Shown one piece after another: positions 978 to 47,094 of a stretch of DNA of 64,000 nucleotides. The notes under the pieces were generated by a model. That model was not told the DNA's origin. It saw only the letters and a program-made list of their open reading frames with translations, and made no database searches. Numbering within the stretch: the stretch's first letter is position 1; the number at the start of each line of letters is the position of its first letter. Both the position numbers and the translations under genes were made by a program. Origin of the DNA: Candidatus Multivorans sp. (lineage in GTDB: Bacteria; Acidobacteriota; Thermoanaerobaculia; Multivoradales; Multivoraceae); assembly GCA_965222875.1 (NCBI GenBank), contig CBDCVC010000003.1, forward strand, positions 1,921,788-1,985,787. Reading direction: 5' to 3'.

Positions 978-1919
978 TCAGCCGGGCGGTAGCCGGCGGC
1001 GGCACCAGATCGAGCCGAAGTGGGTGTCGTAGTCCTCGACCTCGACCGGTCGGTAGCCCGGAATCGTCCGCTCAAGGAAGGCTTCGTCCGCGTGGCGGAT
1101 CATCGGCGCGGAGAGCACGACCTCGAACTCGCGGTTGAAGCTCAGAAAGGCCTGCAGGACCATCGCCTCCGTGCGGTAGAACGGCCACTTGGCGCGGAAG
1201 ATGTACTGCTCGGCCGGATACGGCGTGTTGTACGGGAAGTGGATGTCGTGAACGTGGACCACGACGCCGGGCCGCAGCCGCGGCAGCACCTCAAGAAACA
1301 GGAACGCGACATCGCCCCCCAGCTTGAGCACGTGGGTCGAGTCGATGAACAGCACGTCACCGGCGTCGAGCTCGGCGAAGACTCCTACGTCCGTCGCCTC
1401 GACCTTCGAAACCACGGCCTTCACGGCCGGCTCTTCCAGGTCCCGCAAGCGGCCGGTCGGAAACGGGTCGATGCAGGTCATGTCGCAGGGGCTGCCCTCC
1501 CGTCCGTTCGCCGCCGCCGCCAGCCACGCGTAGTAGGTCGAGAGTCCCGAGCCGATCTCGATGTACCGGGCAGGCCGCAGGTCACGCACCATGAGGTACG
1601 TGGTCAAGGCATCAATCACCGGGAAACCGGGCCCGTAACCCAGTGCCCGGATCTCACTGTGCGGCGGCAACGCCTCGAACTCGCCGCCATGAACCTCGAT
1701 CAGCGCCGAGAGCAGCGCCTTCATCGCCTTCAGGTCGTACCGTACCCCGACCAGCTCACTCGGCCGGTCCCACAACTCCCGAGTCGCCGCCACCTCCAAC
1801 AAGACCGGCAACGGCGAGTAGAAGTCGGCGGTCCGGGCCACGTTCCACCCCAGCCGGCGTAGAGCGGCAAACACCCCCGCATGGACGCGCCGATAGATCG
1901 TTCTGGCTACCTTGACCAT
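978..1919 (-). CDS. Class I SAM-dependent methyltransferase
   Basis: 313-aa ORF with a glycine-rich SAM-binding motif (IEIGSGLSTYY) followed by an acidic residue ~20 aa later. Typical fold I methyltransferase layout. Confidence 0.7.
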   Translation of the reverse strand: MVKVARTIYRRVHAGVFAALRRLGWNVARTADFYSPLPVLLEVAATRELWDRPSELVGVRYDLKAMKALLSALIEVHGGEFEALPPHSEIRALGYGPGFPVIDALTTYLMVRDLRPARYIEIGSGLSTYYAWLAAAANGREGSPCDMTCIDPFPTGRLRDLEEPAVKAVVSKVEATDVGVFAELDAGDVLFIDSTHVLKLGGDVAFLFLEVLPRLRPGVVVHVHDIHFPYNTPYPAEQYIFRAKWPFYRTEAMVLQAFLSFNREFEVVLSAPMIRHADEAFLERTIPGYRPVEVEDYDTHFGSIWCRRRLPPG

Positions 1920-2110
1920 CCCGGGGCCGACGATAACCTGACCCCGACGACGAAGGTGCGTCCCGGCCTGACGAAGCCGGGACCTCGAAGTAGACCTCGT
2001 CGAGGAGGTTTTCGATCCGCACGAATTGAAGAATCAGGCTGCGAGCGGGCATCGTAGCAGCGAGACCGCCGTCATCGAACCCGGACTGTGGCAGCGCCAT
2101 ACGACCTACA

Positions 2111-5100
2111 ATGACGTCCATGCGACACGCCACGGATTCCGGCGCACCCCGCCGCGGGCAGCAACTGTCGCTGCTCCTGGATCGGCCCGAGTCTCCAGTT
2201 CGCATCCACGCCTCGACCCGCCTCGAAACCCTCGCGGTCCGGCTCGCCGACCACATGGAGCGGCAACCCGCCGAGCCGCTCGAACCGGAACGAATCGTCG
2301 TCCCGGACCCCCTGATGGGCCAGTGGCTGCGGCTCGAGGTGGCGTCCCATCTCGGCGTCGCTGCCCACCTGCGAATCGAACGGCCAGCCGAGTTCGCCTG
2401 GGCCGCGATGCGCGAGCAGGTGGACGGACTCGCCGGTGAATCGGTCTACGGGCCGCCCCATCTCCGCTGGAGAATCTTCGACCATCTGAAGAACTGGAGC
2501 GGGGACGACGAGATCGCCCGCTACCTTGAGGACGGTGGCGCGCGCAAGCGTTTCGAGCTCGCTGACCGGCTCGCCGCCGCCTACGACCGGTGCCGCGTGT
2601 ATCGCCCGGACAGCATTCGCGCATGGCAGCAAGGCGGACCGCAAGACTGGCATGCGCGGCTGTGGGCAGACCTCGCGGCGGGCGAGACTGAGCAGCGGCA
2701 TTGGGTCGACGCCATCGACCGCTATCGCGACGCCCTGGCCGAACGGACAGCGACGGCGCCGCGCAAGAGGGTGAGCTTCTTCCACGTCGCCTCGATGTCG
2801 CCCACCTACGTCGAAATGCTGGCGCTGGCCGCCGGGGTGATGGATGTCCACCTGTACCTGCTCAGCCCCTCGCGCCGGTTCTGGGACGCGCAGCCCAGGC
2901 GCGACGACCGGGGCTACTACCAGGAGCACGACGATCTGCTCAGCGCCTGGGGCCGCCCGGCCCGCGACCTCCAGGTGCTGCTGGAGGCGGAGCTGGACGC
3001 CACCGCGGTCGTGGATCTTCCAGCCGCCGCAGACTCGCCGCGCGCCGCCACCTGTCTGGCCGCCCTGCAGCGCGACATCCTTGGCGTGCGCACCGACGGC
3101 GAACCACTCGAACGCGAACCGAAACGTCCGGATGAGTCGATCCAGGTCCACGTCTGCCACTCCCCCACGCGTGAAGTCGAGGTCCTGCACGACCGGCTGC
3201 TCGGCATCTTCGACGACCACGCCGACATCCAGCCCTCGGACGTGCTCGTCGTCACGCCGGACCTCAACACCTACGCGCCCCTGATCGAAGCGGTGTTCGG
3301 ATCGGCGGAGCAGATCGGCTTCAGCATCGGAAGACAGCGCCTGAAGGAAGGCGCCGCTCTGACCGCCTTCCTCGACCTCCTGGAACTGCCCGGATCGCGC
3401 TACGCGGCCAGCGACGTGCTGGCGCCACTGCTCGCGTCGTCGGTCCGCGGTTGCTTCGGCATCGACGATGCCGACCTGGCAGCGATTCGAGACGCGGTCG
3501 CCCGGGCCAGGGTCCGCTGGGGCCTCGACGAGGACCACCGCACCGAACTCGGCGTGCCGGCTTCCGAGAACCACAACTGGCGCCGCGGGCTGAATCGCCT
3601 GGTCCTCGGGTACGCGATGCAGGAAGGCGATGTGCTGATCGACGGCATCACGCCCTGCGCCCTCGACGGGCGGGGCTTCCGCACCGGCGCCAACGACTAC
3701 GAACTGTTGGGCCGGTTTCAGCGCTACTGCGAACTCGCGTTCGCGCTGAACGGCTGGGTCGAAGCCGAGTACACCTCGGACGGGTGGACCAGGCGCCTCC
3801 GGGCCGAAGTACTCGACGTGTTCTTCACCCGGGACCCGCGGCACGGAGTCGAGACCCTCCGGGAGGTCGACACCGTGGCCAGGCTCATCGACGAGTTCGA
3901 CGACCAGTGCACACGGGCGGGAGCCGCCCGGCCGATCCCTTTCACGGTGCTGCGGGACGTCCTGAAGGGACTCGCCGAAGAGGCGGTTCGCTCGGCGCCG
4001 CGACTGGCCGACGGGGTCGCGGTCGCCGACCTCGCTTCCGGCCAGATCTTTCCGGTCAAGGTGATCTGCGCGGTTGGCATGAACGACGGTTCCTTCCCCC
4101 GCCGCCCGCCGCCCGCGGCTTTCGACTTCCAGGTCAACCTCTTCGACGGCGAGGCCCGCAGGCCCGGCGACCGCGATCGCCGTGACGAGGACCGCTCAGC
4201 CTTCCTCGAGGCTCTGCTCGCGGCGCGGCAGTGCTTCGTGTTGACGTACACCGGCCGGGATCTCCAGGAAGACAAGCCCATTCCGCCGTCCATCGTCGTC
4301 AGCGAACTGACGCAGCGCCTCAAGCAGCGCTTCCCGGCGTTCAGAGAGGAACACTGGGCGCAACAACATCCCCTCCAACCGTTCAGCCCCCGCTACTTCC
4401 GGGACGACGATCGGGATCGGCCCGCGCTATTCAGCTACTCGCCGCCGATGGCCGCGGCGGCAACCACCATGGGAACGAGCCGCGAGGTCCCCGAGCGCTT
4501 CGAGGGCGAGGTGGCCACGAGCGGCCGGCAGGGGTTGGCCGAGGAACTCGAGCTGGAGGACCTCATCCGGTTCGCAGTCAGTCCGTCGAAGTACTTCGTC
4601 CGCAACCGGCTGGACATGGTCCTCGACACACGGGACGAGGACGTGGAGGACGACGAGCCCCTCGGCCTGAATGCGCTCGAGATCTGGCAACTGAAGAGCG
4701 ACCTGGCGGGGTTCGGCGACCTGGATGGAGACCGGACGCTCGAGCACGCCGCGGCCCGCGGCCTGCTGCCGCCAAGGAATCTCGGGCTTGTTCAGCACCG
4801 CGAGTCGGCCGCTCAGGTCAGGGGTCTCCTGGAAGCCCTGCATCCGTTTCAGGAGCACAGCAGTTCCCGACTCCAGCAAGTGGATGTCCTGTTCGCGGAG
4901 ACGCGCCTGGTCGGCGGGGTCGACCGGTTCCATGAAATGAAGAACGAGCTCCTGTGGTGGCGGATCGGCCGGATCCGGGCCAAGGACCAGATCGAAGTCT
5001 GGCTGCGGCTGCTGGCGCTCATCTGCGACCGCGAACAAACAGCCACGGCTCACCTGTTCGGCGTCAAGACGGAAGTCGAGAAGGTCACACTCACCGGCCC

Positions 5101-5371: not shown

Positions 5372-8300
5372 CGGCCCAGGCCGCGGGCAACGATCCCCTC
5401 ACCAGATCACTCGACGGCGATCTGATCATCGAAGCCAGCGCGGGCACGGGCAAGACCTACACCCTGACCACACTGGTCGCCCGCCTGATCGTCGAAGCGG
5501 ACCGGAGCATCGACGAACTCCTGATCGTCACGTTCACGATCTCAGCCGCCGGCGAACTCCGGGAGCGGGTCTGGCGCACCTTGCAGGCGGCACGACGAAC
5601 TCTCGCCGAGCCAGACGCCCGAGTCGACGATCAGGCCCGCGAGCTGGCACGGCGCTGGCGGAGCGTCAACATTCGAGGCGCCGACGCGGCGAAACGGCTG
5701 ACCAGCGCCATTCGCGACTTCGACCGGGCCAACATCACGACCATCCACGGCTTCTGCCAGCGCGCGCTGTCCGAGTTCGCCCTCCATGCTGGCATCCCGT
5801 TCCGCTTCCAGGTCAGCGGCGATGACGCGCTGGCGGTCGCCGCGGCGACGCAGGACTTCTGGCGCCGGAAGATGGCGCCCGCGGAGATTCCGTTCCTCGA
5901 GTACGCAGAGGGCCACAACTTCGTTCCGAAGAAAGGACTCCCCTGGGGCGAGGACGCAACCACGTGGGTCGTCCGCTGCCACGCCAAGCAAAGCGACATC
6001 CGCGGCGCCGCCGACCCCGAGGAGGTCCAGCAGGCGCAGCAATCAGGTCGCGATCCCTGGCGCCAGGCGTTCCAGGCAGCACGTGCGGCGTGGAACGACG
6101 ACAGCCAGCGTCAGATCTTCCTTGAAGCGCTGGCCACACACAGGTGGAACAAGAACGAGAACGACGACCGACTCAACGAAGTCACCGCCGCATTCCGCGC
6201 CAACGATCCGGCGTTGCTTGCCCGGGAACACGCCGGCTACTTCGGCCGCGAATCGCTGACCGGCAAACTGAGGAAGACAACGCCTCGGCAGCAACTTCCG
6301 GCCATACTCCTCTACGACGCCTTCGACCGTCTGGGAAAGGCAGCAACGGAACTTCCGCAACTCTGGCTCGCCGGCCAGCGCAGCCTGCTTCTGGAGAACG
6401 TCCGGACGACTCTGCACCACGACGCCTGGGCGGACCGGCGCCTGAGCTTCAACGCCCTCCTGACCGAGTTGCACCGCGCGCTCGATGGCCAGTTCGGCAC
6501 GCCTCTGGCGGAGCGGATCCGCGCCCGATACCCGGTCGCCCTGATCGACGAGTTCCAGGATACGGATCGCCTGCAGGCCGACATCTTCGAGAAGATCTAC
6601 CCCGGCGGCGGCGCGCCGAACGGCAGCCTGCTCGTCGTCGGCGACCCCAAACAGTCCATCTACCGCTTCCGCGGCGCCGATGTCTTCGCCTACTTCGACG
6701 CCAAGAAACGCCTCTCGGGCACGAACCGCGAGTTGAAGCTCGAGAAGAACTACCGCTCGACACCCGGACTCGTCCGTGCCGTGAACGCCCTGTTCGAAAG
6801 ACCCAGGCCATTCGTCCTCCCTGATCCGGGGTTCCACTTCGAGGCAGCCGCCGCGGCCGGCTCCAACCGCGGTGAACTCGTCGTACCCGACCAGGACCAC
6901 GATGCCCGGCCCTTCGAGATCCAGTTGGTTCGAAGGGCAGATGGCAAGAAGTGGACGAAGGGGCAACTGAGACCAGCGACGGCCGAGCACACCGCCGGCG
7001 AGATCGCGCGCTTGCTGGCGCCGACGCGGAACGGAGGGGCTGCTGCGATCGTCTCAGAAGCTGGCAAGGCGCCCATCACCGACGGCGACATCGCCGTGCT
7101 CGTCCGCACGGGCGAGCAGGGCAGGGCAGTCGCCCAAGCGCTGCTGGGCTACGGCATCGACAGCATCGAGATGGGCGTCGACAACGTCTTCGACTCCCAC
7201 GAGGCTGCAGCCCTCTACCGGCTCCTGTACGCCCTGTGCACGGCCGAATCGGAGTACAACGCAACACCGCTGCTCCGCGGCGCGCTGGCGGCAGACCTGT
7301 TTGGCCTGAACTTGCAGGACCTCGCCAGCCTCCGGGACGAGGACGCCTTTTGGACAGACTGGCGCGACCAGGCTCGCGGCTCGCGCGGCTGGGCCCAGGT
7401 CTGGAAAGAGCAGGGCATCGCGGCTCTGATCCGGTACATCCTCTTCGCCAAGGAGTCCGACTGCGCCGCGAACCTTCTGGGCTACCCCGACGGCCCGCGC
7501 CGTCTGACGAACTACCTGCACCTCGCTGACCTGCTGCACGAGGCCGAGACCCGGCGCCGGCCGTCGCGCCACGGGCTCGTCGACTGGTTCAGGCGGTCGC
7601 GGGCCGAACCCAGCGGCGGCGACGAGACGTCACAGCTTCGTCTGGAGAGTGACGAGAGTCTGGTCAAGATCGTGACCGTCCATCGGGCCAAGGGGCTGGA
7701 GTTCCCTATTGTGTTCTGTCCTTTCACCTGGGACGGGCGCCAACCGAAGCCCCCCGAGATTGCCGAGTACTTCGACGCCGCGGAAGGAACGCCCGTACTC
7801 CATCTGCGCCCGTCGGACGACCATCGCGACCGCCAGCGCCTCGAAGAACACGCGGACGAGTTGCGCCTTCTCTACGTGGCATTGACCCGGGCGAAGTACC
7901 GCTGCGTGATGGGTTGGGCACGGGCGACAGCCGCCCAGCACGCACCGCTGGCCTGGCTCCTGCATCGTGGTGGCGGCGACGCCGGCGGCGATCAGAGCCC
8001 GATCGACGCGCTGAAGGAGAACGCCGAGAGGGTGGCCAAACTCGGCGCGGAGGAGTGGCGAGCGGACGTTCACCGCCTCGCCGGCAAGGCGCCGGACGCC
8101 ATCTCGGTCCGGGAGATCGACCTCGCTCTGCCCGACACCGCGGAACCGCTCCGCGGCGCCGAGCCCGAAGCCGGCGACAAACCCCTCCAGGCCCGCCAAC
8201 TCGGCCGCCAACTCGCCTCCATCCGCCAGCGCACCAGCTACTCCGCGCTGTCGACCAGCACCGGCGCCGCACAGTCCGAGATCGAGCATGAAGAAGCCGA

Positions 8301-9093: not shown

Positions 9094-10934
9094 ACGATCC
9101 AACGCGACTCGAGGCGTTGACCGAGCACGGCGTCCTGGCAGACATCGACCGCTACTTCGCTCTGCTGATGACGAAGCTCGGGGCCGCCGGAGATGTCGCC
9201 CTGGCAGCCGCGACCGCCAGCGCGATGCATCGCGCCGGACACACCTGCCTCGAACTCCGCAATCGCGGCGAGCGAATCGCCGACTTGGTGGAGCGGTCGG
9301 ACTCGGGCCCCAGCGCTCCGTTGCCCGACGAACTGGCGGAACTCCGTCTGCCGGACCGCGCGGTTCTGCGCGAAGCCCTCACCCTGAGTCCGGTCGTCGC
9401 CGCCGGTGAGGCGACCGAAGAGGTCCTGCCCCTGGTTCTCGATCGCGACCGCCTCTACCTGCACCGGTTGTTCGCCGCCGAAGGCCGGCTCGCCGAGCGC
9501 ATGCTCGCACTGGCGCGGCAGAACTCCCAGAAACCGGCGCTTCGCGCCGGATGCGGGCCAGAAGGCCCGCGCACCCAGTTTCCGCCGCGCAAGCTCCTGG
9601 CCAGAAGCCACGATTCGGACGCGACCACGGAGCACGTGACCGAGCGCGTGTTCGCCGAAGACGAGGATCGAACGGAGGAAGCCACGGCCGCCATCCGGGC
9701 CGCCCTCGGGCGACGGCTGTGCATCGTCACCGGAGGCCCCGGCACCGGCAAGACGACGCTCGCGGCCAAGCTGATCGCGGTTCTCGTCGCGGGCGGCGCC
9801 GCTGAGCCGCGTCGGATCGGACTGGCGGCGCCCACGGGAAAGGCAGCCTCTCGGCTCCAGGAATCCGTGCGCGGAAAGATGGACGAGAAGCCCCTGAACC
9901 AGGTGCGCCACCTGCGGGACTTTCCGGTCGAGGCACGGACGATCCACCGCCTTCTCGCGGATCGGAGCAGGCCGCTGGCGCGGCTTCAGGCCCTGGTTGT
10001 CGACGAATGCTCCATGGCCGACCTGTCGCTGATGGTCCGCCTCGTGACCGCCCTGCCCGAAGAGTGCCGGCTGATTCTGCTCGGCGACGCGAACCAGTTG
10101 TCCTCGGTGGAACCGGGCTCCGTGTTCAGCGATCTCTGCAAGGCCGGCAGCGACGGACCGCTCGCCCCGTGCGTCACCACTCTCACGAGGAACTACCGGT
10201 TCAGGGCCGACTCCGGGATCGGCCGACTCGCGACGGCCGTCGTTGCGGGCGATGCCGGCGGCGCCCTGCGCGTGCTCCGTGACGCGCTCGACGACAAGAC
10301 CGAACTGCGACCGCTCGAAACCGAAGCCGCGTTCGACGACTTCGCCCGCACAAGCGCCGCGGAATGGTCCGAGCACATGGCGGCACTCGAAGCGCACCCC
10401 GAGAGAACTCCTCCGTTCCCGGCCCACCGCGTCCTGTGCAGCCACCGTAGCGGCCCGTTCGGAATCGCCCGCTTCAACCGGCTCGTCGAGCGCCGCCTCG
10501 CCGAACTGGGACGTCGCAGCGCGGACGACGAGTTCTACGTCGGTCGACCGATCATCGTCAGCCGCAACGACCGGCAGACAGGGCTCTCCAACGGCGACAC
10601 CGGCGTGGTATTGCCCGACGGAGAAGGTGGACGCACGGTCTGGTTCCCCGACCTCGACCGCGACCAGGAGCGCTGCCTGGTCACACCGTCGCGCCTGCCT
10701 CAGCACGAGAGCTTCTTCGCCCTTACCGTCCACCGTGCCCAGGGCTCGGAGTACGACGAAGTCGTCTTCATCCCCGGCGACGCCGCCTCCCGCGTCAACA
10801 CGAAGGAACTCTTCTACACCGCGGTCACGCGGGCGCGAAAGAAGGTCACCGTGCTGGCAACCGAGCCCGCCGTCAGGGCGGCCGTGATGCGGACGACTTC
10901 CCGGGCGACCGGGCTGCTGGATCGGCTCCGCTAG
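9090..10934 (+). CDS. recD: Exodeoxyribonuclease V alpha subunit RecD
   Basis: 614 aa. Walker A (GGPGTGKTT) and SF1 helicase motifs. Overlaps the recB stop by 4 bp (ATGA). Confidence 0.88.
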   Translation: MNDPTRLEALTEHGVLADIDRYFALLMTKLGAAGDVALAAATASAMHRAGHTCLELRNRGERIADLVERSDSGPSAPLPDELAELRLPDRAVLREALTLSPVVAAGEATEEVLPLVLDRDRLYLHRLFAAEGRLAERMLALARQNSQKPALRAGCGPEGPRTQFPPRKLLARSHDSDATTEHVTERVFAEDEDRTEEATAAIRAALGRRLCIVTGGPGTGKTTLAAKLIAVLVAGGAAEPRRIGLAAPTGKAASRLQESVRGKMDEKPLNQVRHLRDFPVEARTIHRLLADRSRPLARLQALVVDECSMADLSLMVRLVTALPEECRLILLGDANQLSSVEPGSVFSDLCKAGSDGPLAPCVTTLTRNYRFRADSGIGRLATAVVAGDAGGALRVLRDALDDKTELRPLETEAAFDDFARTSAAEWSEHMAALEAHPERTPPFPAHRVLCSHRSGPFGIARFNRLVERRLAELGRRSADDEFYVGRPIIVSRNDRQTGLSNGDTGVVLPDGEGGRTVWFPDLDRDQERCLVTPSRLPQHESFFALTVHRAQGSEYDEVVFIPGDAASRVNTKELFYTAVTRARKKVTVLATEPAVRAAVMRTTSRATGLLDRLR

Positions 10935-12539: not shown

Positions 12540-13454
12540 TCAGCGGCTCGAAGCACCGGCGGCGCGACGGCCCGCATCCAGATCGGCGTGCATGGCGGCG
12601 ACCAGTGCGGCCACTTCGGGCCGAGTCAGCTTCGAGCCGGGGCCCTGCTCTTCCACCCGGTCCAGCGTCGCCCAGGCGAGACGCACCGGCAAGGCGGTGA
12701 AGCCGAGATAACCGCGCGGAGCGCCGGCCCTCTGCAGGTGATCCACGTACTCCCCGGCAATCGGGAGGTCCGCGCGAGCGAGCTCGAAGGCCAGCTTCCG
12801 GTCGCGAGCGCTTGGAATGAAGGTTCTGCCCTCGGCCGCGTCGGCAGTGGAGTCCTTCAGGATGTTCACGAGTTGCAGCGCTTCGCCGAAGATCGCGGCC
12901 CGGCGCCGGAGCGCTTCCGCGACCGGCGCCAGCGGAGCGCCGAGCAAGAACAACTCGGTCAGCATCTCGCCGACAATGCCGGCGACGACGTAGCAGTAAT
13001 CGCGGAGATCGGGGATCCCGGAAAGCTGGAGTTCGCCGGCACGGTCGGCGCGATTGACGATGTGCGTCATGCCTGCACAGGTGCGGCGCACGTGACGGCC
13101 GACTACCGACCGAGCCGCCGGGTCGAGAGCTTCATAGGCCGAGAGAACGTCGCCTGTCGCCTCGAGCAGTTCCAGGTACCCCTCGTGATGCGAAGGAGGA
13201 GTGTCGAGCCAGGACTCAACCGCAGCCGCCACGCCGTCCTCCCGCTCGCCCGCGTCCGTCAGCAAGTCCGCAAAGCGGAACAAGGCCTCGACCCGTTGCT
13301 CCCGGCTCCAGACCGCCGCGTCCTCGAGCGTGTCGGCGATCCGAAGCAGCAGATAGCCCAGCGTCACCTGTTGGCGAGTGGCGCCCTCGAGTTGGGGGAT
13401 CGAAAGAGCAAATGTCCTACTCGTCTTGACGAGCAGATCTTCAAGATCAGCCAT
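12540..13454 (-). CDS. Squalene/phytoene synthase family protein (HpnC/HpnD/CrtB-like)
   Basis: 304 aa. TSRTFALSI N-terminal signature, Asp-rich DTLED motif, YCYVVAGIVGEML motif and a second Asp-rich region. Trans-isoprenyl diphosphate synthase head-to-head family. Confidence 0.8.
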   Translation of the reverse strand: MADLEDLLVKTSRTFALSIPQLEGATRQQVTLGYLLLRIADTLEDAAVWSREQRVEALFRFADLLTDAGEREDGVAAAVESWLDTPPSHHEGYLELLEATGDVLSAYEALDPAARSVVGRHVRRTCAGMTHIVNRADRAGELQLSGIPDLRDYCYVVAGIVGEMLTELFLLGAPLAPVAEALRRRAAIFGEALQLVNILKDSTADAAEGRTFIPSARDRKLAFELARADLPIAGEYVDHLQRAGAPRGYLGFTALPVRLAWATLDRVEEQGPGSKLTRPEVAALVAAMHADLDAGRRAAGASSR

Positions 13455-13731
13455 GCGGGGAACGCAAGTCTACCGGCGGGGTCGACGAGGTGTCCGCCAG
13501 GGGGGATTATAATGCAAAGTTGACAAGGCGGTAGGCGCGACCTACACTTCTCACCGTCTAGCGCGAGCACACGGCCCCTGAGTCGGGCCGCTCGCCGAAT
13601 ACAAGAGCCGGGGCAGGTGGAGATGATCTCCGCCCCTGACGGTGAATAGGCGGGAGCCTCAGCCGTGTGCAGTGCGCTAGACACGGCCCGGCACCATTCC
13701 GGGGGCCGGAGCCTCAGCGAAAGGAGAGCCC

Positions 13732-14394
13732 ATGCTCTCTCTTGGAGCGAGCGTCGTCGCACTCGCTGCGGTGACTACTTTTGGCATGCCGACCGGAGCT
13801 CAATCGGACACGGAAGACGCCTCGCACGACGACAGGGCCGGATGCGATTACAGCCAAGCGGTTGGCGAAGTCAGACACTGGCCTCGAGGATTCGATGCCG
13901 AGAGCTTCTGGGTAGGTGTGGACTTCTGGGTAGAGCCGGGAGATCCAAGGGCGAGAGCCTGTCTGCTGGATTCCTACGGAGCCCCCAACTTGGCCTGGAC
14001 CGGCCCGTCGATGGTCTTCTACTTCTTCACGCCAGACAACGTTGAGGTGATCGTCAAGGTACTCGACGGGTGCAAGATCAACGGCTTCTTCTGGGTGTAC
14101 GCCGCCGGACTCACCGATATCCCTTGGAGGTTGGATATCTTGGTGCCGAGCCGCCTAACGTCCGCTGGACAACTCAAGAAGTCCTGGTACATCGAGCCCG
14201 GAGAACCCGTGATCCCGAAGCGCCTGTATCGAGACGACAACCCGCTCAATCCGTGGTCGCCCGATCTTCTTCAGGACAGCACCGGGGCGCTCTACCACCG
14301 ACTCAGTGAACGTGAACCACCGCCACGAAACATCGGCTTCTACGCCATCCAACAGGTCGCCGACAACGAAGCGATCGCTTGTCGGTCGCGGTGA
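13732..14394 (+). CDS. Hypothetical secreted protein (passenger gene of IS1595 element), 4 Cys
   Basis: 220 aa. Strong Shine-Dalgarno (AAAGGAGAG) 6 bp upstream. N-terminal signal peptide. No recognisable domain. Identical copy at 27522-28184 (-). Confidence 0.6.
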   Translation: MLSLGASVVALAAVTTFGMPTGAQSDTEDASHDDRAGCDYSQAVGEVRHWPRGFDAESFWVGVDFWVEPGDPRARACLLDSYGAPNLAWTGPSMVFYFFTPDNVEVIVKVLDGCKINGFFWVYAAGLTDIPWRLDILVPSRLTSAGQLKKSWYIEPGEPVIPKRLYRDDNPLNPWSPDLLQDSTGALYHRLSEREPPPRNIGFYAIQQVADNEAIACRSR

Positions 14395-14644
14395 CTTACA
14401 CCGGGCGCCCCTTCGGCGCGTTCTTGGAGAGCTGTAGGATTCAAGGATCCCCGGCACGTACTGTGCGGCGGCGTGAGCTACTGGAAGCGCTTTCGCCGTA
14501 GCGTTGCTCGCGGCCATCTTGAGGGACTGGACAGGCTTCGACTTCGGGGCGCTTGCGTTCGGGGCGCTCTTGTGGCTAGAGTCTCTAGCGAGATCTCCGT
14601 TCTTCATCACGAGGTCCTTTCTCGTTGTTGGATCGAAACCCCTT

Positions 14645-14677
14645 GGCCCGCGGCCCCAAGCCGCGGGTTTTGTGGTT
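14645..14677 (+). terminator. Rho-independent terminator-like hairpin inside IS1595 cargo region
   Basis: 8-bp GC stem (CCCGCGGC/GCCGCGGG) with a 5-nt loop, followed by TTTTGTGGTT. Mirror copy at ~27238-27270 on the other strand in copy B. Confidence 0.45.
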
Positions 14678-14687
14678 CTGGGAGCCG

Positions 14688-14800
14688 AACTCTACGCCAC
14701 GAGGTCCACGTACCGCAACCGCTTGCCGGCCATGCCACGGGCGATCCAGAGCATCTGTTCGACGGTGTCGAGGTCGCGAATGTTCCGCCTGCCGAGGCTC
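14688..14800 (-). pseudogene. Remnant of a second, diverged IS1595-type transposase 3' end (last ~32 codons)
   Basis: Reverse-strand translation gives RRNIRDLDTVEQMLWIARGMAGKRLRYVDLVA*. The intact transposase ends RRNVRDLDTAEQMVEMVRGMAGKRLRYADLVA*. Match truncates at a CTAG at ~14800. Confidence 0.6.
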
Positions 14801-14864
14801 TAGCCGGCCGCGACCTTCTCCTCCCGCTCGGTCGTGACGGTGGAGTAAGCAGGGTCGACGTGCG

Positions 14865-15170
14865 CTAGTAGCGTAGGCCCATACCGTCGAGAGCCTGCTC
14901 GCAGCGCCTGACGATCTCGCGTTGCGCCGCGGCTCCCTGCACCCATTCAACCAGTTCTTCCTGGGGCGGGTATTCGATCTCGGCTACTTCCGAGACGTGA
15001 AGATCCGGCCGAGGGCTCACGGCGTTCTGTATCCGGCCTACTTCGGCAAGCCGGTAGAACAGGCTCATGGCTCGACTGATCTTGGATTCGTAACAGGCCA
15101 GGAGCCGGAGGGCATCCGAGCGCTCAAGGAACAGCCGAGAGACTTCGGCGTTCTGCTCGTCCTTGCTCAT
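14865..15170 (-). CDS. Hypothetical protein, co-oriented immediately downstream of IS1595 transposase (passenger/accessory ORF)
   Basis: 101-aa ORF starting 10 bp after the transposase stop. Conserved identically in both copies (25525-25830 in copy B). No recognisable domain. Confidence 0.5.
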   Translation of the reverse strand: MSKDEQNAEVSRLFLERSDALRLLACYESKISRAMSLFYRLAEVGRIQNAVSPRPDLHVSEVAEIEYPPQEELVEWVQGAAAQREIVRRCEQALDGMGLRY

Positions 15171-15179
15171 GCCCGAACT

Positions 15180-16154
15180 CTACGCGACCAGATCCGCGTA
15201 CCGCAACCGCTTACCGGCCATGCCGCGGACCATCTCGACCATCTGCTCGGCGGTGTCCAGGTCGCGGACGTTGCGTCGCCACACGAACTCGTCGACGTAG
15301 GCGTGCAGGTGCTTGAAGCTCATCCGGTGGTACTTGCCGACGAAGCCGCGCTTGAACATCGACCAGAGGGACTCGATCGTGTTCGTATGCACGTCCACGC
15401 TGCGGACGTACTCGCCGAGGGAGTGCTTGACGGTCCGGTGCATGTAGGTCTCCATCAGGTCGCCGTAGCCGCCGTGATCGTCGGTGTAGACGCGGGCGCC
15501 GTGCTTGACGTGGGCCTCGACGAACCGGGTGAGAGTCTTGCCGTCCGTGGAGTCGATCGGCGCGGCCACGGCCTTGCCGTCGCGCTGGATGGCGCCGACG
15601 ACGGGCTTCTTGCCGAAGAACGAGGAGCTGCCGCCTCCGTCGCCGTCCCGGTACTTGTCGGCGTCCTTCTTGTGCCGGTTCTTCTGCTTCCCGCCGACGA
15701 ACATCTCGTCCACTTCGACGATGCCTTCGAGCTTCGAGAACGAGCCGTCCTTGAACGCGGCCCGGATGCGGTGGAGCATGAACCAGGCGGCCGGCTGGCT
15801 GATGTCGAGGGCGCGGTGCAGCTCCATGCTGGAGACGCCCTTGAGGTTCGCCGCTTCGAGGTAGATCGCGTAGGCCCACTTGCGGAGCGGGAGCTTCGAT
15901 CCCTCCATGACGGTGCCGACCTTGACGGAGAAGTAGGCGCGGCAGTCGGAGCACCAGTAGGGCATGGTCTTGTGCTTGGCCTCGCGGGTGCGATCGCCGC
16001 CGCAGCGTGGGCAGTGGATCGAGCCGCCCCACAGGGCGGCCTCGAACCAGCGGCGCGCGGCGTTCTCGTTCGGGAACATCCGCTCCAGCGCGAACAGCGA
16101 GATGCCGTTCCGGTGGGCCTGTCCAGGTGCGTTGTAGGTGGTCGAGTCGTTCAT
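15180..16154 (-). CDS. IS1595 family transposase (ISXO2-like; N-terminal zinc ribbon plus DDE_Tnp_IS1595)
   Basis: 324 aa. CPRCGG...CSDCRAYFSVKVGT zinc-ribbon, then a DDE region with DxxGGYxxL and a C-terminal RNxRDLDT motif typical of IS1595/ISXO2 transposases. Confidence 0.85.
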   Translation of the reverse strand: MNDSTTYNAPGQAHRNGISLFALERMFPNENAARRWFEAALWGGSIHCPRCGGDRTREAKHKTMPYWCSDCRAYFSVKVGTVMEGSKLPLRKWAYAIYLEAANLKGVSSMELHRALDISQPAAWFMLHRIRAAFKDGSFSKLEGIVEVDEMFVGGKQKNRHKKDADKYRDGDGGGSSSFFGKKPVVGAIQRDGKAVAAPIDSTDGKTLTRFVEAHVKHGARVYTDDHGGYGDLMETYMHRTVKHSLGEYVRSVDVHTNTIESLWSMFKRGFVGKYHRMSFKHLHAYVDEFVWRRNVRDLDTAEQMVEMVRGMAGKRLRYADLVA

Positions 16155-16291
16155 CGGTTCCTCCGTTGACTGGCGTATCCAGCCTACTGAGGATCCTAGC
16201 CCTTGTCAACTTTCCCTTATAATCCCCCCGCCAGGGACCGCGTGGTATCGTCCCACCCTCTTCCTGACAGCGAAGCTACGCTCCAACGCCC

Positions 16292-17824
16292 ATGAACTCC
16301 AAGAGGATTGTCTCGCTCTCGCTGGTTGCAGGGGCGCTCCTGGTCCCTGGCTGCTCCCTGGCGCCCCCTCCGGAACTCCCCGACCCGGCGGCGCAGATGC
16401 CGGCGGACTTCGAGCAAGGCCCTTATACCGGAGCCTACGAGCCGCTCCAGTGGTGGAAGGCGTTTGCCGACCCGGTGCTTGACCGGATCGTCGACTCCGC
16501 GCTGGCGTCCAACCTGGATATGGCCGCTGCGGTCGCTCACGTCCAGCAGGCCAGGGAGAGGGCCCGGATCGCCAAGGCCGCGATCCTGCCTGTTGTTGCG
16601 GCCGGCGCCGAAATACACGATCTGACCAACCCGACGAATGCGGGCTTCGGGGCCCAGATCCAGGAACTCGGGCTGGGAGAACTCGCGCCTGGATTCACAT
16701 TGCCCGAACGCCTGGGGATCACGACGTACTCACTGGGCGCTGACTTCTCCTACGAGATGGACTTCTGGGGGCGGGCCGAAAGTTCCGCACTCGCCGCCGG
16801 CGCCGAGTACCTCGCGTCGGAATCCGACTACCAGACCGCCAGGATCGGGATCCTTGCGGAGACCATCGGAACCTACTTCGAGATCGTCGACCTTCGCCGG
16901 CAGAGCACGATCACCCGGAACATGGTCGATGTCCTCCTGGAGCGCGAGGACGTCGCCTCCACGCGCTACGACCGCGGGCTGAGCGATTCCCTGGACCTCT
17001 ACCGCATTCGCCAGGATCTGCGGAACACCCAGGCCATCCTGCCGCAGCTCGACAACGGGCTGGCGAGCGCCGAGGGGCGCCTCGCCGTCCTTCTGGGGAG
17101 CTACCTGGACGATCTGGCCGAGATCCTGCCAGACGCCCTGTCGCCCGACACTGCGGCCGATCCGGTTCCAGCCGGGATTCCGGCCGACCTCCTGATGCAG
17201 CGGCCCGACGTGCGGGCAGCAAGACACCGGCTCGAGGCGGCCCGTTTCTCAATCGAAGCCCGCCGCGCCGAACTCCTGCCCACGCTCTCGTTCTCCGGTT
17301 CCATCGGGCTCCAGAGTTCGGAGATCGACGGACTGTTCAAGGTGGACCAGTGGTTCACCAACCTTGCATCCAACCTTCTCGCACCGGTCTTCGATGGCGG
17401 ACGGCTCCGAAGCAACGTGACGCTGGCCGAAGCCCGCTTCAGCGAACTCGCGGCGACCTATGGCCGCACGGCCGTGACGGCCGTCAACGAGGTAGAGACC
17501 GCTCTGGCCGTGCATCAGAACGAGGGCCGGCGCCACGCCCTGCTCTCTTCCCGACTCGAGGAAGCGCGCGCAACGGAGGAACTCCGCTCCCAGAGGTACG
17601 AAGCGGGCATAGGAGGCTACGCCGACGTTCTCGACGCGCTTCTCACCCGCTTGAACGTAGAGTCAGCCCTGGCAGGCGCCGAGCGGAATCTAGCACTCGC
17701 CAGGCTGACCGTCCACCGCGCCCTGGGAGGGGCCTGGACGCCTCCTAAAACGATGGGCGAAAACCCTGCGGCGCAGGTCCAGGCCCAATCACAACCACAA
17801 ACGTCAACCGGAATCACGAGCTGA
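16292..17824 (+). CDS. RND efflux system outer membrane factor lipoprotein (NodT/TolC family)
   Basis: 510 aa. Lipoprotein signal with lipobox (LVPGCSLA). Two repeated TolC-like halves. First gene of the OMF-MFP-RND operon. Confidence 0.82.
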   Translation: MNSKRIVSLSLVAGALLVPGCSLAPPPELPDPAAQMPADFEQGPYTGAYEPLQWWKAFADPVLDRIVDSALASNLDMAAAVAHVQQARERARIAKAAILPVVAAGAEIHDLTNPTNAGFGAQIQELGLGELAPGFTLPERLGITTYSLGADFSYEMDFWGRAESSALAAGAEYLASESDYQTARIGILAETIGTYFEIVDLRRQSTITRNMVDVLLEREDVASTRYDRGLSDSLDLYRIRQDLRNTQAILPQLDNGLASAEGRLAVLLGSYLDDLAEILPDALSPDTAADPVPAGIPADLLMQRPDVRAARHRLEAARFSIEARRAELLPTLSFSGSIGLQSSEIDGLFKVDQWFTNLASNLLAPVFDGGRLRSNVTLAEARFSELAATYGRTAVTAVNEVETALAVHQNEGRRHALLSSRLEEARATEELRSQRYEAGIGGYADVLDALLTRLNVESALAGAERNLALARLTVHRALGGAWTPPKTMGENPAAQVQAQSQPQTSTGITS

Positions 17825-23722: not shown

Positions 23723-24362
23723 TCAGGCGGCGTTCCTGGTCTGATCGGCGTCCTCGGTTTGTTCGATGCCGTCAACGAAACGGACATCGCGGATCACTTT
23801 GGCGACCTTGTCGAAGCCTCGCAGGCGCCGCCAGCGGGCTTGTGCGCAGGTTCCGAGCTTGAAGATCATGGCCAGCATGGTGTTTCGGCTGACGCAGCCC
23901 TTGGTGCGGGCGGTGCGGTGGCGAATCGTGGCGAAGGTCGACTCGATCGGATTCGTGGTGCGCAGATGCACCCAGTGCTCGGCGGGGAAGTCGTAGAAGG
24001 CGAGGAGTTCCTCGCGGTCCTTGAGCAGGCAGTTCGTCGCCTTCGGGTACTTGGCCTCGTAGCGCCTCTGCCAGGCCGCGGCGGTCCTCGATCCGGCCCG
24101 TCTCCCGGTGCTGCCGGATCAGCCGCGTCACCTGCGACTCGGACTTCCCGGTCATCTTCATCAGGTAGCGCCGAATCATGCCCTTGTCGCGCCTCACAAG
24201 CGCCCGGTAGCGGAACCTGACCAGCGTCTCACGGAGAACTCGTACGCCGATCCGCGGTCCACCAGCACCAGGTCCACCGCCTCGTTGCCGGACGTTGCCG
24301 GACAGGAAAAGATGAACCTCGTCAAGTGTCTGAAGTCGGTGGGCCTGCAGCGTCACGATCAT
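23723..24362 (-). pseudogene. IS256-family (Mutator-like) transposase remnant, truncated and frameshifted
   Basis: C-terminal fragment NPIESTFATIRHRTARTKG...WRRLRG matches the IS256 transposase C-terminus. Upstream portion is in other frames. Truncated at the IS1595 copy B insertion site. Confidence 0.55.
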
Positions 24363-24540
24363 CCTCCGATGATCCCCAACACACCCTCAGGCTCATCTCT
24401 CGTGGGATTGACATCGCTCCTTCAGGCTCATCTCACATGGGACAAGGCTCTGTGCCGTGCGACTTGCGGGGATTATAAGGGAAAGTTGACAAGGGCTAGG
24501 ATCCTCAGTAGGCTGGATACGCCAGTCAACGGAGGAACCG

Positions 24541-25515
24541 ATGAACGACTCGACCACCTACAACGCACCTGGACAGGCCCACCGGAACGGCATCTCGCTG
24601 TTCGCGCTGGAGCGGATGTTCCCGAACGAGAACGCCGCGCGCCGCTGGTTCGAGGCCGCCCTGTGGGGCGGCTCGATCCACTGCCCACGCTGCGGCGGCG
24701 ATCGCACCCGCGAGGCCAAGCACAAGACCATGCCCTACTGGTGCTCCGACTGCCGCGCCTACTTCTCCGTCAAGGTCGGCACCGTCATGGAGGGATCGAA
24801 GCTCCCGCTCCGCAAGTGGGCCTACGCGATCTACCTCGAAGCGGCGAACCTCAAGGGCGTCTCCAGCATGGAGCTGCACCGCGCCCTCGACATCAGCCAG
24901 CCGGCCGCCTGGTTCATGCTCCACCGCATCCGGGCCGCGTTCAAGGACGGCTCGTTCTCGAAGCTCGAAGGCATCGTCGAAGTGGACGAGATGTTCGTCG
25001 GCGGGAAGCAGAAGAACCGGCACAAGAAGGACGCCGACAAGTACCGGGACGGCGACGGAGGCGGCAGCTCCTCGTTCTTCGGCAAGAAGCCCGTCGTCGG
25101 CGCCATCCAGCGCGACGGCAAGGCCGTGGCCGCGCCGATCGACTCCACGGACGGCAAGACTCTCACCCGGTTCGTCGAGGCCCACGTCAAGCACGGCGCC
25201 CGCGTCTACACCGACGATCACGGCGGCTACGGCGACCTGATGGAGACCTACATGCACCGGACCGTCAAGCACTCCCTCGGCGAGTACGTCCGCAGCGTGG
25301 ACGTGCATACGAACACGATCGAGTCCCTCTGGTCGATGTTCAAGCGCGGCTTCGTCGGCAAGTACCACCGGATGAGCTTCAAGCACCTGCACGCCTACGT
25401 CGACGAGTTCGTGTGGCGACGCAACGTCCGCGACCTGGACACCGCCGAGCAGATGGTCGAGATGGTCCGCGGCATGGCCGGTAAGCGGTTGCGGTACGCG
25501 GATCTGGTCGCGTAG
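24541..25515 (+). CDS. IS1595 family transposase (identical to 15180-16154)
   Basis: Identical 324-aa product. Confidence 0.85.
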   Translation: MNDSTTYNAPGQAHRNGISLFALERMFPNENAARRWFEAALWGGSIHCPRCGGDRTREAKHKTMPYWCSDCRAYFSVKVGTVMEGSKLPLRKWAYAIYLEAANLKGVSSMELHRALDISQPAAWFMLHRIRAAFKDGSFSKLEGIVEVDEMFVGGKQKNRHKKDADKYRDGDGGGSSSFFGKKPVVGAIQRDGKAVAAPIDSTDGKTLTRFVEAHVKHGARVYTDDHGGYGDLMETYMHRTVKHSLGEYVRSVDVHTNTIESLWSMFKRGFVGKYHRMSFKHLHAYVDEFVWRRNVRDLDTAEQMVEMVRGMAGKRLRYADLVA

Positions 25516-25524
25516 AGTTCGGGC

Positions 25525-25830
25525 ATGAGCAAGGACGAGCAGAACGCCGAAGTCTCTCGGCTGTTCCTTGAGCGCTCGGATGCCCTCCGGCTCCTGGCCT
25601 GTTACGAATCCAAGATCAGTCGAGCCATGAGCCTGTTCTACCGGCTTGCCGAAGTAGGCCGGATACAGAACGCCGTGAGCCCTCGGCCGGATCTTCACGT
25701 CTCGGAAGTAGCCGAGATCGAATACCCGCCCCAGGAAGAACTGGTTGAATGGGTGCAGGGAGCCGCGGCGCAACGCGAGATCGTCAGGCGCTGCGAGCAG
25801 GCTCTCGACGGTATGGGCCTACGCTACTAG
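25525..25830 (+). CDS. Hypothetical protein (identical to 14865-15170), accessory ORF of IS1595 element
   Basis: Identical 101-aa product, same position relative to the transposase. Confidence 0.5.
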   Translation: MSKDEQNAEVSRLFLERSDALRLLACYESKISRAMSLFYRLAEVGRIQNAVSPRPDLHVSEVAEIEYPPQEELVEWVQGAAAQREIVRRCEQALDGMGLRY

Positions 25831-25894
25831 CGCACGTCGACCCTGCTTACTCCACCGTCACGACCGAGCGGGAGGAGAAGGTCGCGGCCGGCTA

Positions 25895-27113
25895 GTGTCA
25901 TGTCACACGTCTTATGCCGTATGAATCGTAGTAGGCTCCTTGCCGTTCGACAACGGCAAGGAGTCTGGCATGAAGCGGTATGTGGTGGAGTTGGAGGCGC
26001 AGGAGCGCGAGGCGTTGGCGACGATGACGCGCAAGGGTTCGCATCGGTCGCAGAAGGTGATCAACGCCTTGATTCTGCTCAACTGCGACGAGGGCGAGTT
26101 CAACGGGCGTCGGCCGACCGGCGAGACGATCGCCGGGGTCTTGCGGATCAGTGCGCGCAGGGTGGATCGTGTGAAGAAGCGGTTTGTGGAGGACGGTCTG
26201 GAGGCGGCGCTCGGCAGTCGGCAGGGGCGTCGTCCGAAGTACCTGCGCAAGGCGGATGGCGAGTTCGAGGCGCGGCTGGTCGCGCTGAGTTGCGGCGAGC
26301 CGCCCGAAGGGCGTTCGCAGTGGTCTCTGCGTCTGTTGGCGGACCGTGCGGTGGAGCTCGGCTATATCGACAGCGTCTCGCACGAGACGGTGCGGCGGGT
26401 GCTAAAAAAAACGCTCTCAAACCGTGGCGCCGCGTCGGCTGGGTGATTCCGCCGCAATGCAACGCCGACTTCGCGGCGAACATGGAGCGGGTGCTCGACG
26501 TCTATCGGCGTCCGCACGACGCGAACTTCCCGGTGGTGTGCATGGACGAGACGCCGCGGCAGTTGATCGCCGAGACACGGGCGCCCATCCCGCAGGCCCC
26601 TGGACGGGAGGTCCGCGAAGACTACGAGTACCGACGCTGCGGCACCTGCAACGTGTTCATGGCGACCGAACCGCTGGCCGGGCGGCGTCTGACCAAGGTC
26701 ACCGAGCGCAGGACCAAGACCGACTGGGCGCGTTTCCTGGAAGACATCGCCGGGCAGTATCCCGACGCCACCCGAATCACGCTGGTGATGGACAACCTCA
26801 ACACCCACCGCCCCGGCGCGCTCTACGAGACCTTCGACCCGGCCCGGGCCAAGGCGCTGTGGGACCGCTTCGAGTTCGTCTATACCCCCAAGCACGGCAG
26901 TTGGCTGAACGTCGCCGAGGTCGAACTCAGCGTGATGATCCGACAGTGCCTCAACCGCCGCATCGACTCCATCGACACCCTACGCGCCGAAGTCGGCGCC
27001 TGGCAGGACGCCAGAGACCGGATCCAAGCCAAGGTCAACTGGCACTTCACCACCGACGACGCACGAGTCAAACTCAAGCGCCTCTATCCGACTTTTGACG
27101 AGTGACACGACAC
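25895..27113 (+). mobile_element. IS630-family insertion sequence, copy 1 (1,219 bp), nested inside IS1595 copy B
   Basis: Flanked by duplicated TA (25893-94 and 27114-15). Terminal inverted repeats GTGTCATGTCACACGTC and, reverse-complemented, GTGTCGTGTCACTCGTC. Inserted at the CTAG that corresponds to 14797-14800 in the uninterrupted copy A. Confidence 0.8.
25940..27105 (+). CDS. IS630-family transposase OrfAB (HTH N-terminal domain plus DDE domain), requires -1 frameshift
   Basis: OrfA 25940-26446 (HTH-like, 168 aa). It continues in the -1 frame to 27105 with a DDE domain (DETP...D...E). Slippery A8 run at 26404-26411 lies just before the OrfA stop. Combined product ~390 aa. Confidence 0.75.
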
Positions 27114-27115
27114 TA

Positions 27116-27230
27116 GAGCCTCGGCAGGCGGAACATTCGCGACCTCGACACCGTCGAACAGATGCTCTGGATCGCCCGTGGCATGGCCGGCAAGCGGTTG
27201 CGGTACGTGGACCTCGTGGCGTAGAGTTCG
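27116..27230 (+). pseudogene. Transposase 3' remnant (mirror of 14688-14800), here split from its other flank by the IS630 insertion
   Basis: Reverse complement of the copy A remnant. IS630 sits exactly at its truncation point. Confidence 0.55.
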
Positions 27231-27521
27231 GCTCCCAGAACCACAAAACCCGCGGCTTGGGGCCGCGGGCCAAGGGGTTTCGATCCAACAACGAGAAAGG
27301 ACCTCGTGATGAAGAACGGAGATCTCGCTAGAGACTCTAGCCACAAGAGCGCCCCGAACGCAAGCGCCCCGAAGTCGAAGCCTGTCCAGTCCCTCAAGAT
27401 GGCCGCGAGCAACGCTACGGCGAAAGCGCTTCCAGTAGCTCACGCCGCCGCACAGTACGTGCCGGGGATCCTTGAATCCTACAGCTCTCCAAGAACGCGC
27501 CGAAGGGGCGCCCGGTGTAAG

Positions 27522-28184
27522 TCACCGCGACCGACAAGCGATCGCTTCGTTGTCGGCGACCTGTTGGATGGCGTAGAAGCCGATGTTTCGTGGCGGTGGT
27601 TCACGTTCACTGAGTCGGTGGTAGAGCGCCCCGGTGCTGTCCTGAAGAAGATCGGGCGACCACGGATTGAGCGGGTTGTCGTCTCGATACAGGCGCTTCG
27701 GGATCACGGGTTCTCCGGGCTCGATGTACCAGGACTTCTTGAGTTGTCCAGCGGACGTTAGGCGGCTCGGCACCAAGATATCCAACCTCCAAGGGATATC
27801 GGTGAGTCCGGCGGCGTACACCCAGAAGAAGCCGTTGATCTTGCACCCGTCGAGTACCTTGACGATCACCTCAACGTTGTCTGGCGTGAAGAAGTAGAAG
27901 ACCATCGACGGGCCGGTCCAGGCCAAGTTGGGGGCTCCGTAGGAATCCAGCAGACAGGCTCTCGCCCTTGGATCTCCCGGCTCTACCCAGAAGTCCACAC
28001 CTACCCAGAAGCTCTCGGCATCGAATCCTCGAGGCCAGTGTCTGACTTCGCCAACCGCTTGGCTGTAATCGCATCCGGCCCTGTCGTCGTGCGAGGCGTC
28101 TTCCGTGTCCGATTGAGCTCCGGTCGGCATGCCAAAAGTAGTCACCGCAGCGAGTGCGACGACGCTCGCTCCAAGAGAGAGCAT
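27522..28184 (-). CDS. Hypothetical secreted protein (identical to 13732-14394), IS1595 passenger
   Basis: Identical 220-aa product. Confidence 0.6.
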   Translation of the reverse strand: MLSLGASVVALAAVTTFGMPTGAQSDTEDASHDDRAGCDYSQAVGEVRHWPRGFDAESFWVGVDFWVEPGDPRARACLLDSYGAPNLAWTGPSMVFYFFTPDNVEVIVKVLDGCKINGFFWVYAAGLTDIPWRLDILVPSRLTSAGQLKKSWYIEPGEPVIPKRLYRDDNPLNPWSPDLLQDSTGALYHRLSEREPPPRNIGFYAIQQVADNEAIACRSR

Positions 28185-28422
28185 GGGCTCTCCTTTCGCT
28201 GAGGCTCCGGCCCCCGGAATGGTGCCGGGCCGTGTCTAGCGCACTGCACACGGCTGAGGCTCCCGCCTATTCACCGTCAGGGGCGGAGATCATCTCCACC
28301 TGCCCCGGCTCTTGTATTCGGCGAGCGGCCCGACTCAGGGGCCGTGTGCTCGCGCTAGACGGTGAGAAGTGTAGGTCGCGCCTACCGCCTTGTCAACTTT
28401 GCATTATAATCCCCCGACTTGC

Positions 28423-47074: not shown

Positions 47075-47094
47075 CGGCGTCGGCGCGACGACGC

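Follow-up and report, generated by a model that had tools for sequence, protein, structure and literature searches.

Does the DNA between the terminal inverted repeats (TIRs) of an IS1595-family element move as one unit together with the gene for a predicted exported protein that it encloses, or does that gene lie beside, or between, ordinary insertion sequences (ISs)? The question is raised by a 2.7-kb element in a 64,000-nt stretch of the Candidatus Multivorans sp. contig CBDCVC010000003.1 (hereafter the window, meaning the whole stretch that was analysed), in which one transposase gene and a convergent, plus-strand open reading frame (ORF) for a 220-aa protein, the cargo, share a single TIR pair. 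We put the probability at about 0.9 that the element is an IS1595-family transporter IS (tIS), that is, one transposase gene and one TIR pair with non-transposition genes between them, as a first-pass annotation of the same DNA had proposed.

Two copies with separate target-site duplications

The element occurs twice in the window, as copy A (13502-16227, 2,726 bp) and, in inverted orientation relative to it, copy B (24468-28414, 3,947 bp). The reverse complement of 24468-25895 is 100% identical to 14800-16227, and that of 27113-28415 is 100% identical to 13501-14803, so that the copies agree at 100% across all 2,726 bp and identity ends exactly at the TIRs. The four bases common to both identity blocks are CTAG, and at this site (14800-14803 in copy A) copy B carries a nested IS630-family element of 1,219 bp (25895-27113), with TA duplicated within the CTAG target. 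Because of this insertion copy B measures 3,947 bp rather than 2,726 bp; the first-pass annotation, which described both copies as a 2.7-kb element, was right for copy A but overlooked the nested IS630 in copy B. The features of both copies, with strand and basis, are as follows.

13494-13501, no strand: left target-site duplication (TSD) of copy A, CCGCCAGG (read directly; same as 16228-16235)
13502-13528, plus: cargo-side TIR of copy A, GGGGATTATAATGCAAAGTTGACAAGG (one of four matches in the window)
13520-13548, plus: promoter-like site, TTGACA-17 nt-TACACT (consensus, 10/12 matches)
13549-13731, plus: 5′ leader of the cargo gene, ending in AAAGGAG (folding energy and conservation in the sibling element L054, described below)
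13732-14394, plus: cargo gene, 220 aa (ORF)
14645-14679, plus: terminator-like hairpin and T tract (10 pairs, 8 of them G-C)
14685-14787, minus: transposase 3′ remnant (83% identity to 15173-15275)
14788-14864, no strand: junction segment, containing CTAG at 14800-14803 (no similarity to any locus compared)
14865-15170, minus: 101-aa ORF (ORF)
15180-16154, minus: IS1595-family transposase, 324 aa (PF12762, PF12760, NF033547)
16201-16227, minus: transposase-side TIR of copy A, GGGGATTATAAGGGAAAGTTGACAAGG (TIR scan)
16228-16235, no strand: right TSD of copy A, CCGCCAGG (read directly)
24460-24467, no strand: TSD of copy B, CGACTTGC (read directly)
24468-25894, plus: transposase half of copy B, with TIR 24468-24494, transposase 24541-25515 and 101-aa ORF 25525-25830 (100% identity to copy A)
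25895-27113, plus: nested IS630-family element, distinct from the IS1595 element (helix-turn-helix ORF and DDE_3 ORF)
27114-28414, minus: cargo half of copy B, with transposase fragment 27129-27231, cargo 27522-28184 and TIR 28388-28414 (100% identity to copy A)
28415-28422, no strand: TSD of copy B, CGACTTGC (read directly)

The genes and signals named in the first-pass annotation (the 324-aa transposase, the 101-aa and 220-aa ORFs, the Shine-Dalgarno sequence, the terminator hairpin and the 3′ fragment) all lie where it had placed them, as do the 27-bp TIRs. The TIRs at the two ends of one element agree at 25 of 27 positions: GGGGATTATAATGCAAAGTTGACAAGG closes the cargo side (13502-13528, and 28388-28414 on the minus strand) and GGGGATTATAAGGGAAAGTTGACAAGG the transposase side (16201-16227 on the minus strand, and 24468-24494). 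A scan of the window at up to 3 mismatches returned these four matches and no others, against 0 expected from 100 dinucleotide-preserving shuffles. The element holds no internal TIR, and none was found near 14700-14900 even at 3 mismatches. Each copy is bracketed by its own perfect 8-bp direct repeat, as had been claimed: CCGCCAGG for copy A (13494-13501 and 16228-16235) and CGACTTGC for copy B (24460-24467 and 28415-28422). The flanks of the two copies are unrelated to each other, copy A having a squalene/phytoene synthase gene on one side and an efflux-pump operon on the other, and copy B lying among IS remnants. Because identity stops at the TIRs, the 8-bp TSDs differ between the copies and there is no internal TIR, the sequence argues that what moves is the whole unit between the TIRs, and that the entire unit, passenger genes included, has transposed at least twice, as first proposed.

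These observations bear directly on the possibility that the mobile unit is an ordinary IS1595 element of about 1.3 kb, adjoining unrelated DNA that by coincidence carries a solo TIR at its far end, with the cargo outside. Such an arrangement would fit the 1.36 kb that the transposase gene and the 101-aa ORF together occupy, and plain 1.16-kb ISs do exist in the clade (L024, L025, L028 and L030). It is nevertheless very improbable, given that both copies share all 2,726 bp at 100% up to the TIRs, that the TSDs bracket the full unit in both, that no TIR lies where the shorter element would have to end (14700-14900), and that L054 repeats the whole architecture. We give almost no credence to the notion that the two copies reflect a segmental duplication or an artefact of metagenome assembly. 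The window does derive from a low-coverage metagenome contig (ctg816843_5x_l), and exact repeats can be mis-assembled, but the copies are inverted, their flanks are unrelated, their perfect 8-bp TSDs differ and only copy B has the IS630 insert. A second assembly, ERZ26695579 (L003), shows copy B in the same arrangement, and in two other runs the short-read unitigs (L004, L005 and L008) end precisely at the TIR and the CTAG site.

DDE transposases bind TIRs, and target cuts staggered by 8 bp give rise to 8-bp duplications. The zinc-ribbon and DDE transposase encoded here would accordingly recognise both TIRs and move all of the DNA between them, and insertion at cuts staggered by 8 bp would account for the TSDs. 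Since the copies are 100% identical, the transpositions in this genome, at least two in number, took place very recently, and the IS630 element landed in copy B afterwards.

Transposase, remnant and a sibling element

Profile searches revealed that the 324-aa protein matches PF12762 over the whole profile (Pfam, E = 2.3e-38, 1-153/153) and NF033547 almost from end to end (NCBIfam, E = 5.7e-56, 2-215/215), and that residues 28-73 form a PF12760 zinc ribbon (E = 7e-07, 29.5 bits against a cutoff of 25.4). By these matches, which bear out the family first assigned to it, the protein is a complete IS1595 transposase with a zinc ribbon and a full DDE domain. No IS1595 transposase on 72,556 plasmids reaches 60% identity to it (33-43% at the best place), and it attains 87-94% identity only with metagenomic relatives.

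The 101-aa ORF begins 9 nt after the transposase stop codon. Between it and the cargo lies a 103-nt remnant (14685-14787) of a second transposase gene, 83% identical to 15173-15275, which runs from approximately 32 codons before the stop codon to 7 nt past it (78% over 32 aa by tblastn) and has no TIR of its own. The best match to the remnant is the intact 3′ end of the transposase gene in L054 rather than the 3′ end of the intact gene in the window.

L054 is a 5.9-kb contig from another metagenome (assembly ERZ25072076). It contains a 2,287-bp element (1167-3453) with near-identical TIRs, a transposase 94% identical to that of the window, and its own 8-bp TSD, CGGCGGAC. Its layout is transposase, terminator region and convergent cargo, the last a 233-aa homolog of the 220-aa protein, with neither the 101-aa ORF nor a duplicated transposase end. 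It is thus an independent sibling with a different TSD that likewise carries its passenger inside the TIRs. Copies that keep the outer TIRs and lack the cargo, which the first-pass annotation had named as the observation that would speak against a tIS, were not found; L054 combines the same cargo-side TIR with homologous cargo.

The remnant lends some support to the idea of a decayed compound or nested transposon, in which two IS1595 copies once bracketed the cargo and mobility arose only from the fusion of the pair. We regard this as improbable. In contrast to what it predicts, the remnant lacks a TIR and the element has no internal one; L054 has an intact transposase gene at the position of the remnant, the same terminator, homologous cargo, a single TIR pair and its own TSD; and relatives with other cargo (L011, L017, L015 and L039) have a single transposase gene each. 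The former tandem or nested IS pair invoked in the first-pass annotation therefore explains the transposase fragment and the 101-aa ORF but, in view of L054, not how the cargo came aboard.

Under the tIS reading, the present element is better described as a mosaic. Global alignment renders it as L054 plus one 488-bp insertion, and its transposase gene is 96-100% identical to that of L054 over the first 650 nt and 85-91% thereafter; the last part is 90-92% identical to that of another relative, L011, over most of its length. Because the remnant abuts the terminator and the cargo as the intact transposase gene does in L054, the comparison suggests that an element with a single transposase gene already carried the cargo. 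The ancestor would have been a simple transposase-terminator-cargo element, as still found in L054; it would then have acquired the final third of its present transposase gene, together with the 101-aa ORF, by recombination with a related IS1595 element, and the 103-nt remnant would be what this event spared of the old transposase gene.

The window contains further repeats and IS remains. The IS630 element has the terminal repeats GTGTCATGTCACACG and GTGTCGTGTCACTCG and an A8 run near 26405, between its helix-turn-helix and DDE_3 ORFs, which by its sequence is a likely programmed frameshift site; a second, 99% identical copy begins near 36617, 10.7 kb downstream. IS remains near copy B lie at 23723-24362 and 28574-29938, and the neighbourhood includes a C-terminal remnant of a transposase that by eye is IS256-type (23723-23971, minus strand), an unassigned 196-aa ORF and an IS5/IS1182-like transposase gene (DUF772 and DDE_Tnp_1). 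Elsewhere in the window, repeats unrelated to the element pair 39779-39879 with 57174-57275 and 46363-47206 with 57306-58027, direct at 91-92% identity and inverted at 78-87%.

The cargo gene and its protein family

The cargo gene apparently has expression signals of its own. The -35 box, TTGACA, of a promoter-like site lies inside the cargo-side TIR and faces inward to the cargo, and an equivalent site occupies the same place in L054 (TTGACA, 18 nt, TAGGCT); on this sequence pattern, the cargo is probably transcribed from an inward promoter with its -35 box in the TIR. The TIR was also considered as an outward-facing promoter, and this was rejected because the hexamers then stand in the wrong order and the inward reading alone works. 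The leader of about 180 nt (13549-13731) has a minimum free energy of -99.5 kcal/mol (z = -4.1 against shuffled controls) and contains blocks conserved in L054, and an AAAGGAG Shine-Dalgarno sequence stands 5 nt upstream of the ATG of the 220-aa ORF. One leader hairpin is apparently kept in L054 with a different sequence. A search of Rfam over 13400-16300 at E ≤ 1 returned nothing, the leader included. Downstream, a plus-strand terminator-like hairpin (14645-14669; 10 pairs, 8 of them G-C) is followed by a T tail, and its surroundings (14443-14798) are 87-93% identical at the nucleotide level in L054. Transcription would thus run from the TIR-embedded promoter through a long structured leader, which may regulate cargo expression, and the hairpin would stop the cargo transcript before the convergent transposase gene and so insulate the cargo.

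The 220-aa protein has a signal peptide, four conserved cysteines and a predicted beta-sandwich core, and would be exported via the Sec pathway as a disulfide-containing protein. Neither it nor its homologs belong to any family in Pfam or NCBIfam, and the cargo with its four homologs has no PADLOC or PHROG match, so that known anti-phage defence and phage families are not represented among them; tblastn against 50,697 deposited phage genomes and a search of IMG/VR viral contigs gave no match to the cargo, and a profile search of PDB sequences returned nothing.

Among 5.8 billion protein clusters, only six full-length members of the family were found, the window protein included, and all family members have signal-peptide-like N termini and the invariant residues C38, C77, C114 and C217. 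Besides the window protein in its IS1595 tIS, P0155 is carried by the sibling tIS of L054. The family also occurs outside intact ISs, a point on which the first-pass annotation had asked for a check: P0002 and P0156 are encoded by lone opposite-strand genes beside terminase genes in two related phage contigs of about 35 kb from different samples, P0004 (L057) adjoins a type I CRISPR-Cas locus, and P0003 (L055/L056) lies in an integrase island, 84 nt downstream of the degenerate TIR GGGGACTACAAACGAGAGTTGACAAGG. That island probably derives, by decay, from an element of this lineage. Its degenerate TIR is at 4917-4943, it has a phage integrase gene, and short IS1595 transposase remnants stand at 9264-9392 and 2213-2305. 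A TIR relic was sought beside the phage-borne homologs as well, and none was found at up to 3 mismatches.

Over the mature part, the window allele shares most identity with the phage alleles (56%) and the L054 allele with the island allele, P0003 (67%), whereas window and L054 cargo are only 49% identical. Because the two transposases are 94% identical while the cargo proteins are 49% identical, each allele being closer to an outside copy, the sequences point to exchange of the cargo cassette, or strong diversifying selection, between the window and L054 elements.

A HMMER scan of 1.84 billion representative proteins gave 6,512 matches at E ≤ 0.001. Nearly all cover a core of roughly 45-80 residues (FFxPDNxExxVKVLDGCxxNGxxWVFxAGLTD), usually present in at least two copies per protein among the best-scoring matches; in the few large core proteins scanned, it stands alongside Ig-like (He_PIG), CARDB, DUF11 or metalloprotease domains. 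The core is not modelled in Pfam or NCBIfam, and it defines a widespread extracellular domain without a curated family. A structure model from a 2-sequence alignment was useless (predicted local distance difference test score, pLDDT, 40), and one from 41 sequences reached a pLDDT of 75-90 in the core.

Relatives and place among known mobile elements

Related elements carry other passengers. L011, in a Holophagales metagenome-assembled genome, has a transposase 87% identical to that of the window, ends of the same type and the TSD GGGGCGGC, and its passenger is a DNA methylase fused to an HNH nuclease. Directly upstream of this gene lies a (GTCCCGC)n heptanucleotide tandem repeat with an assembly gap (7255-7385), which could be a phase-variation switch for the passenger. 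More distant relatives have transposases of 40-50% identity and ends of the form GGGnATTAT; seven of these elements measure 2.1-5.1 kb and have perfect 8-bp TSDs, and the eighth, L039 (3.5 kb), has an unreadable TSD because it starts at a contig end. Methylases, methylase-nuclease fusions or a SocA/Panacea antitoxin are carried by six of the eight: Eco57I-like methylases in L015 and L022, a methylase-Mrr fusion in L017, a methylase-HNH fusion in L039, and SocA/Panacea antitoxin with a partner gene in L018 and L019. The other two, L016 and L020, have only ORFs without a family match. L015, L017, L018/L019, L020, L022 and L039 span 2.5-5.1 kb, several of them from Arenicellales metagenome-assembled genomes. 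A single genome contains both L018 and L019, copies that differ in their duplications and that each also hold a nested IS4-like transposase gene. The plain 1.16-kb ISs (L024, L025, L028 and L030) are four copies in a Leptonemataceae genome. Altogether, 8-bp TSDs are present in eleven further relatives besides the window copies, L054 and L011. Given the passengers of the distant relatives, cargo carriage is common in this IS1595 clade.

A metagenome search with the TIR pattern GGGGATTATAA-N6-GTTGACA returned 17 loci, of which only the LXNI01 contigs were tied to a real element of the clade. The other twelve loci showed no transposase or cargo homolog and are probably chance matches, since the pattern holds both sigma-70 promoter hexamers.

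Since the cargo slot of related elements is mostly filled by restriction-modification-like fusions and a toxin-antitoxin gene, genomic association raises the idea of an envelope role for the cargo protein, in excluding phages or in interacting with a host. A wider proposal, that it belongs to a very rare accessory family existing mainly as swappable mobile-element cargo, with such an envelope role, and that the IS clade serves as a dedicated defence-gene shuttle in symbiont genomes, we consider doubtful.

A passage of PMC3129680 defines ISs with passenger genes, or transporter ISs, from the IS1595 family, crediting Siguier, Gagnevin and Chandler 2009, and such elements are described as occurring in the IS1595 and IS66 families alone (TnCentral preprint, bioRxiv 10.1101/2021.05.26.445724; PMC3129680). 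The window element agrees with the tISs of IS1595 in having a single zinc-ribbon and DDE transposase, one TIR pair, an 8-bp TSD and internal passengers, and in size (2-5 kb rather than about 1 kb). Its transposase has the DDE_Tnp_IS1595 (ISXO2-like) domain. The passengers inside the TIRs, the 220-aa and 101-aa ORFs, have no transposition domain; the whole unit has transposed, by the evidence of two TSDs in the window and a third in L054; and one intact transposase gene with a 103-nt remnant is present, unlike in a compound transposon, whose cargo lies between two complete ISs that have a TIR pair apiece. It differs from described tISs in being a new element and in its internal remnant of a second transposase gene, which is unusual. 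Within the limited literature consulted, an exported, Cys-rich beta-sandwich passenger was not found described as IS cargo. With compound transposons the element shares cargo moved by an IS transposase and the trace of a second IS gene, but each window copy has one intact transposase gene and two TIRs, and in L054 every trace of a second IS is missing. Another parallel is offered by phage morons, accessory genes of phage genomes that are transcribed independently, in that the closest full-length relatives of the cargo are lone opposite-strand genes by terminase genes and that the cargo, by consensus matches, apparently has its own promoter, leader and terminator; here, however, the vehicle is an IS, not a phage, and there is no TIR at the phage loci. 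The element adds a new and recently active member to the IS1595 tISs, a class already on record, and is not a new kind of element.

As a lead rather than a result, we take the ISNwi1 subgroup of the ISfinder classification, which includes members with passenger genes, to be a candidate home for the element. The element ends GGGGATTAT fit the ISNwi1 end consensus, ggnnatTAT, and the 8-bp TSD, the E-x6-K motif (in HTNTIESLWSMFKR) and a size within the 1.75-4.75 kb of passenger-bearing members would agree with such a placement.

Several points weigh against the tIS reading or parts of it. Only two copies are visible in the window, and neither insertion yielded an empty-site allele: the empty site of copy A would read GTGTCCGCCAGG joined directly to GACCGCGTGG, and that of copy B TGCGACTTGC joined directly to CGCCGTCTGG, and an exact-protein look-up of the flanking squalene/phytoene synthase recovered the occupied site only. 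The promoter and terminator assignments are consensus matches. The 101-aa ORF matched only itself among the 5.8 billion protein clusters, had no match in Pfam, NCBIfam, PHROG or PADLOC and is absent from L054 and L011; GC content by codon position (0.71/0.40/0.74) is coding-like, but because the ORF is an orphan its status as a gene is uncertain. With a mean pLDDT of 66.8, the cargo structure model is moderate in quality, and none of its structural neighbours is informative. Finally, more than one order of events is conceivable: a window-like ancestor could have given rise to L054 through a deletion between its 103-nt repeats. Such a deletion would not by itself account for the transposase identity falling off from about 230 nt upstream of the repeat.

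The tIS described here leaves knowledge of transposition mechanics unchanged. It is a clean, recently active example of an IS that moves a non-transposition gene, and its close relatives document that TIRs, transposase and terminator form a conserved chassis, that the cargo slot is exchangeable and that related elements recombine. In related elements the cargo repertoire is dominated by restriction-modification-like and toxin-antitoxin genes. Recognition of such elements aids genome annotation, because units of 2-5 kb are usually split into a 'transposase' and a 'hypothetical protein'. Also worth attention are a rare family of exported proteins common to ISs and phages and a widespread, uncurated extracellular domain found in more than 6,500 representative proteins.

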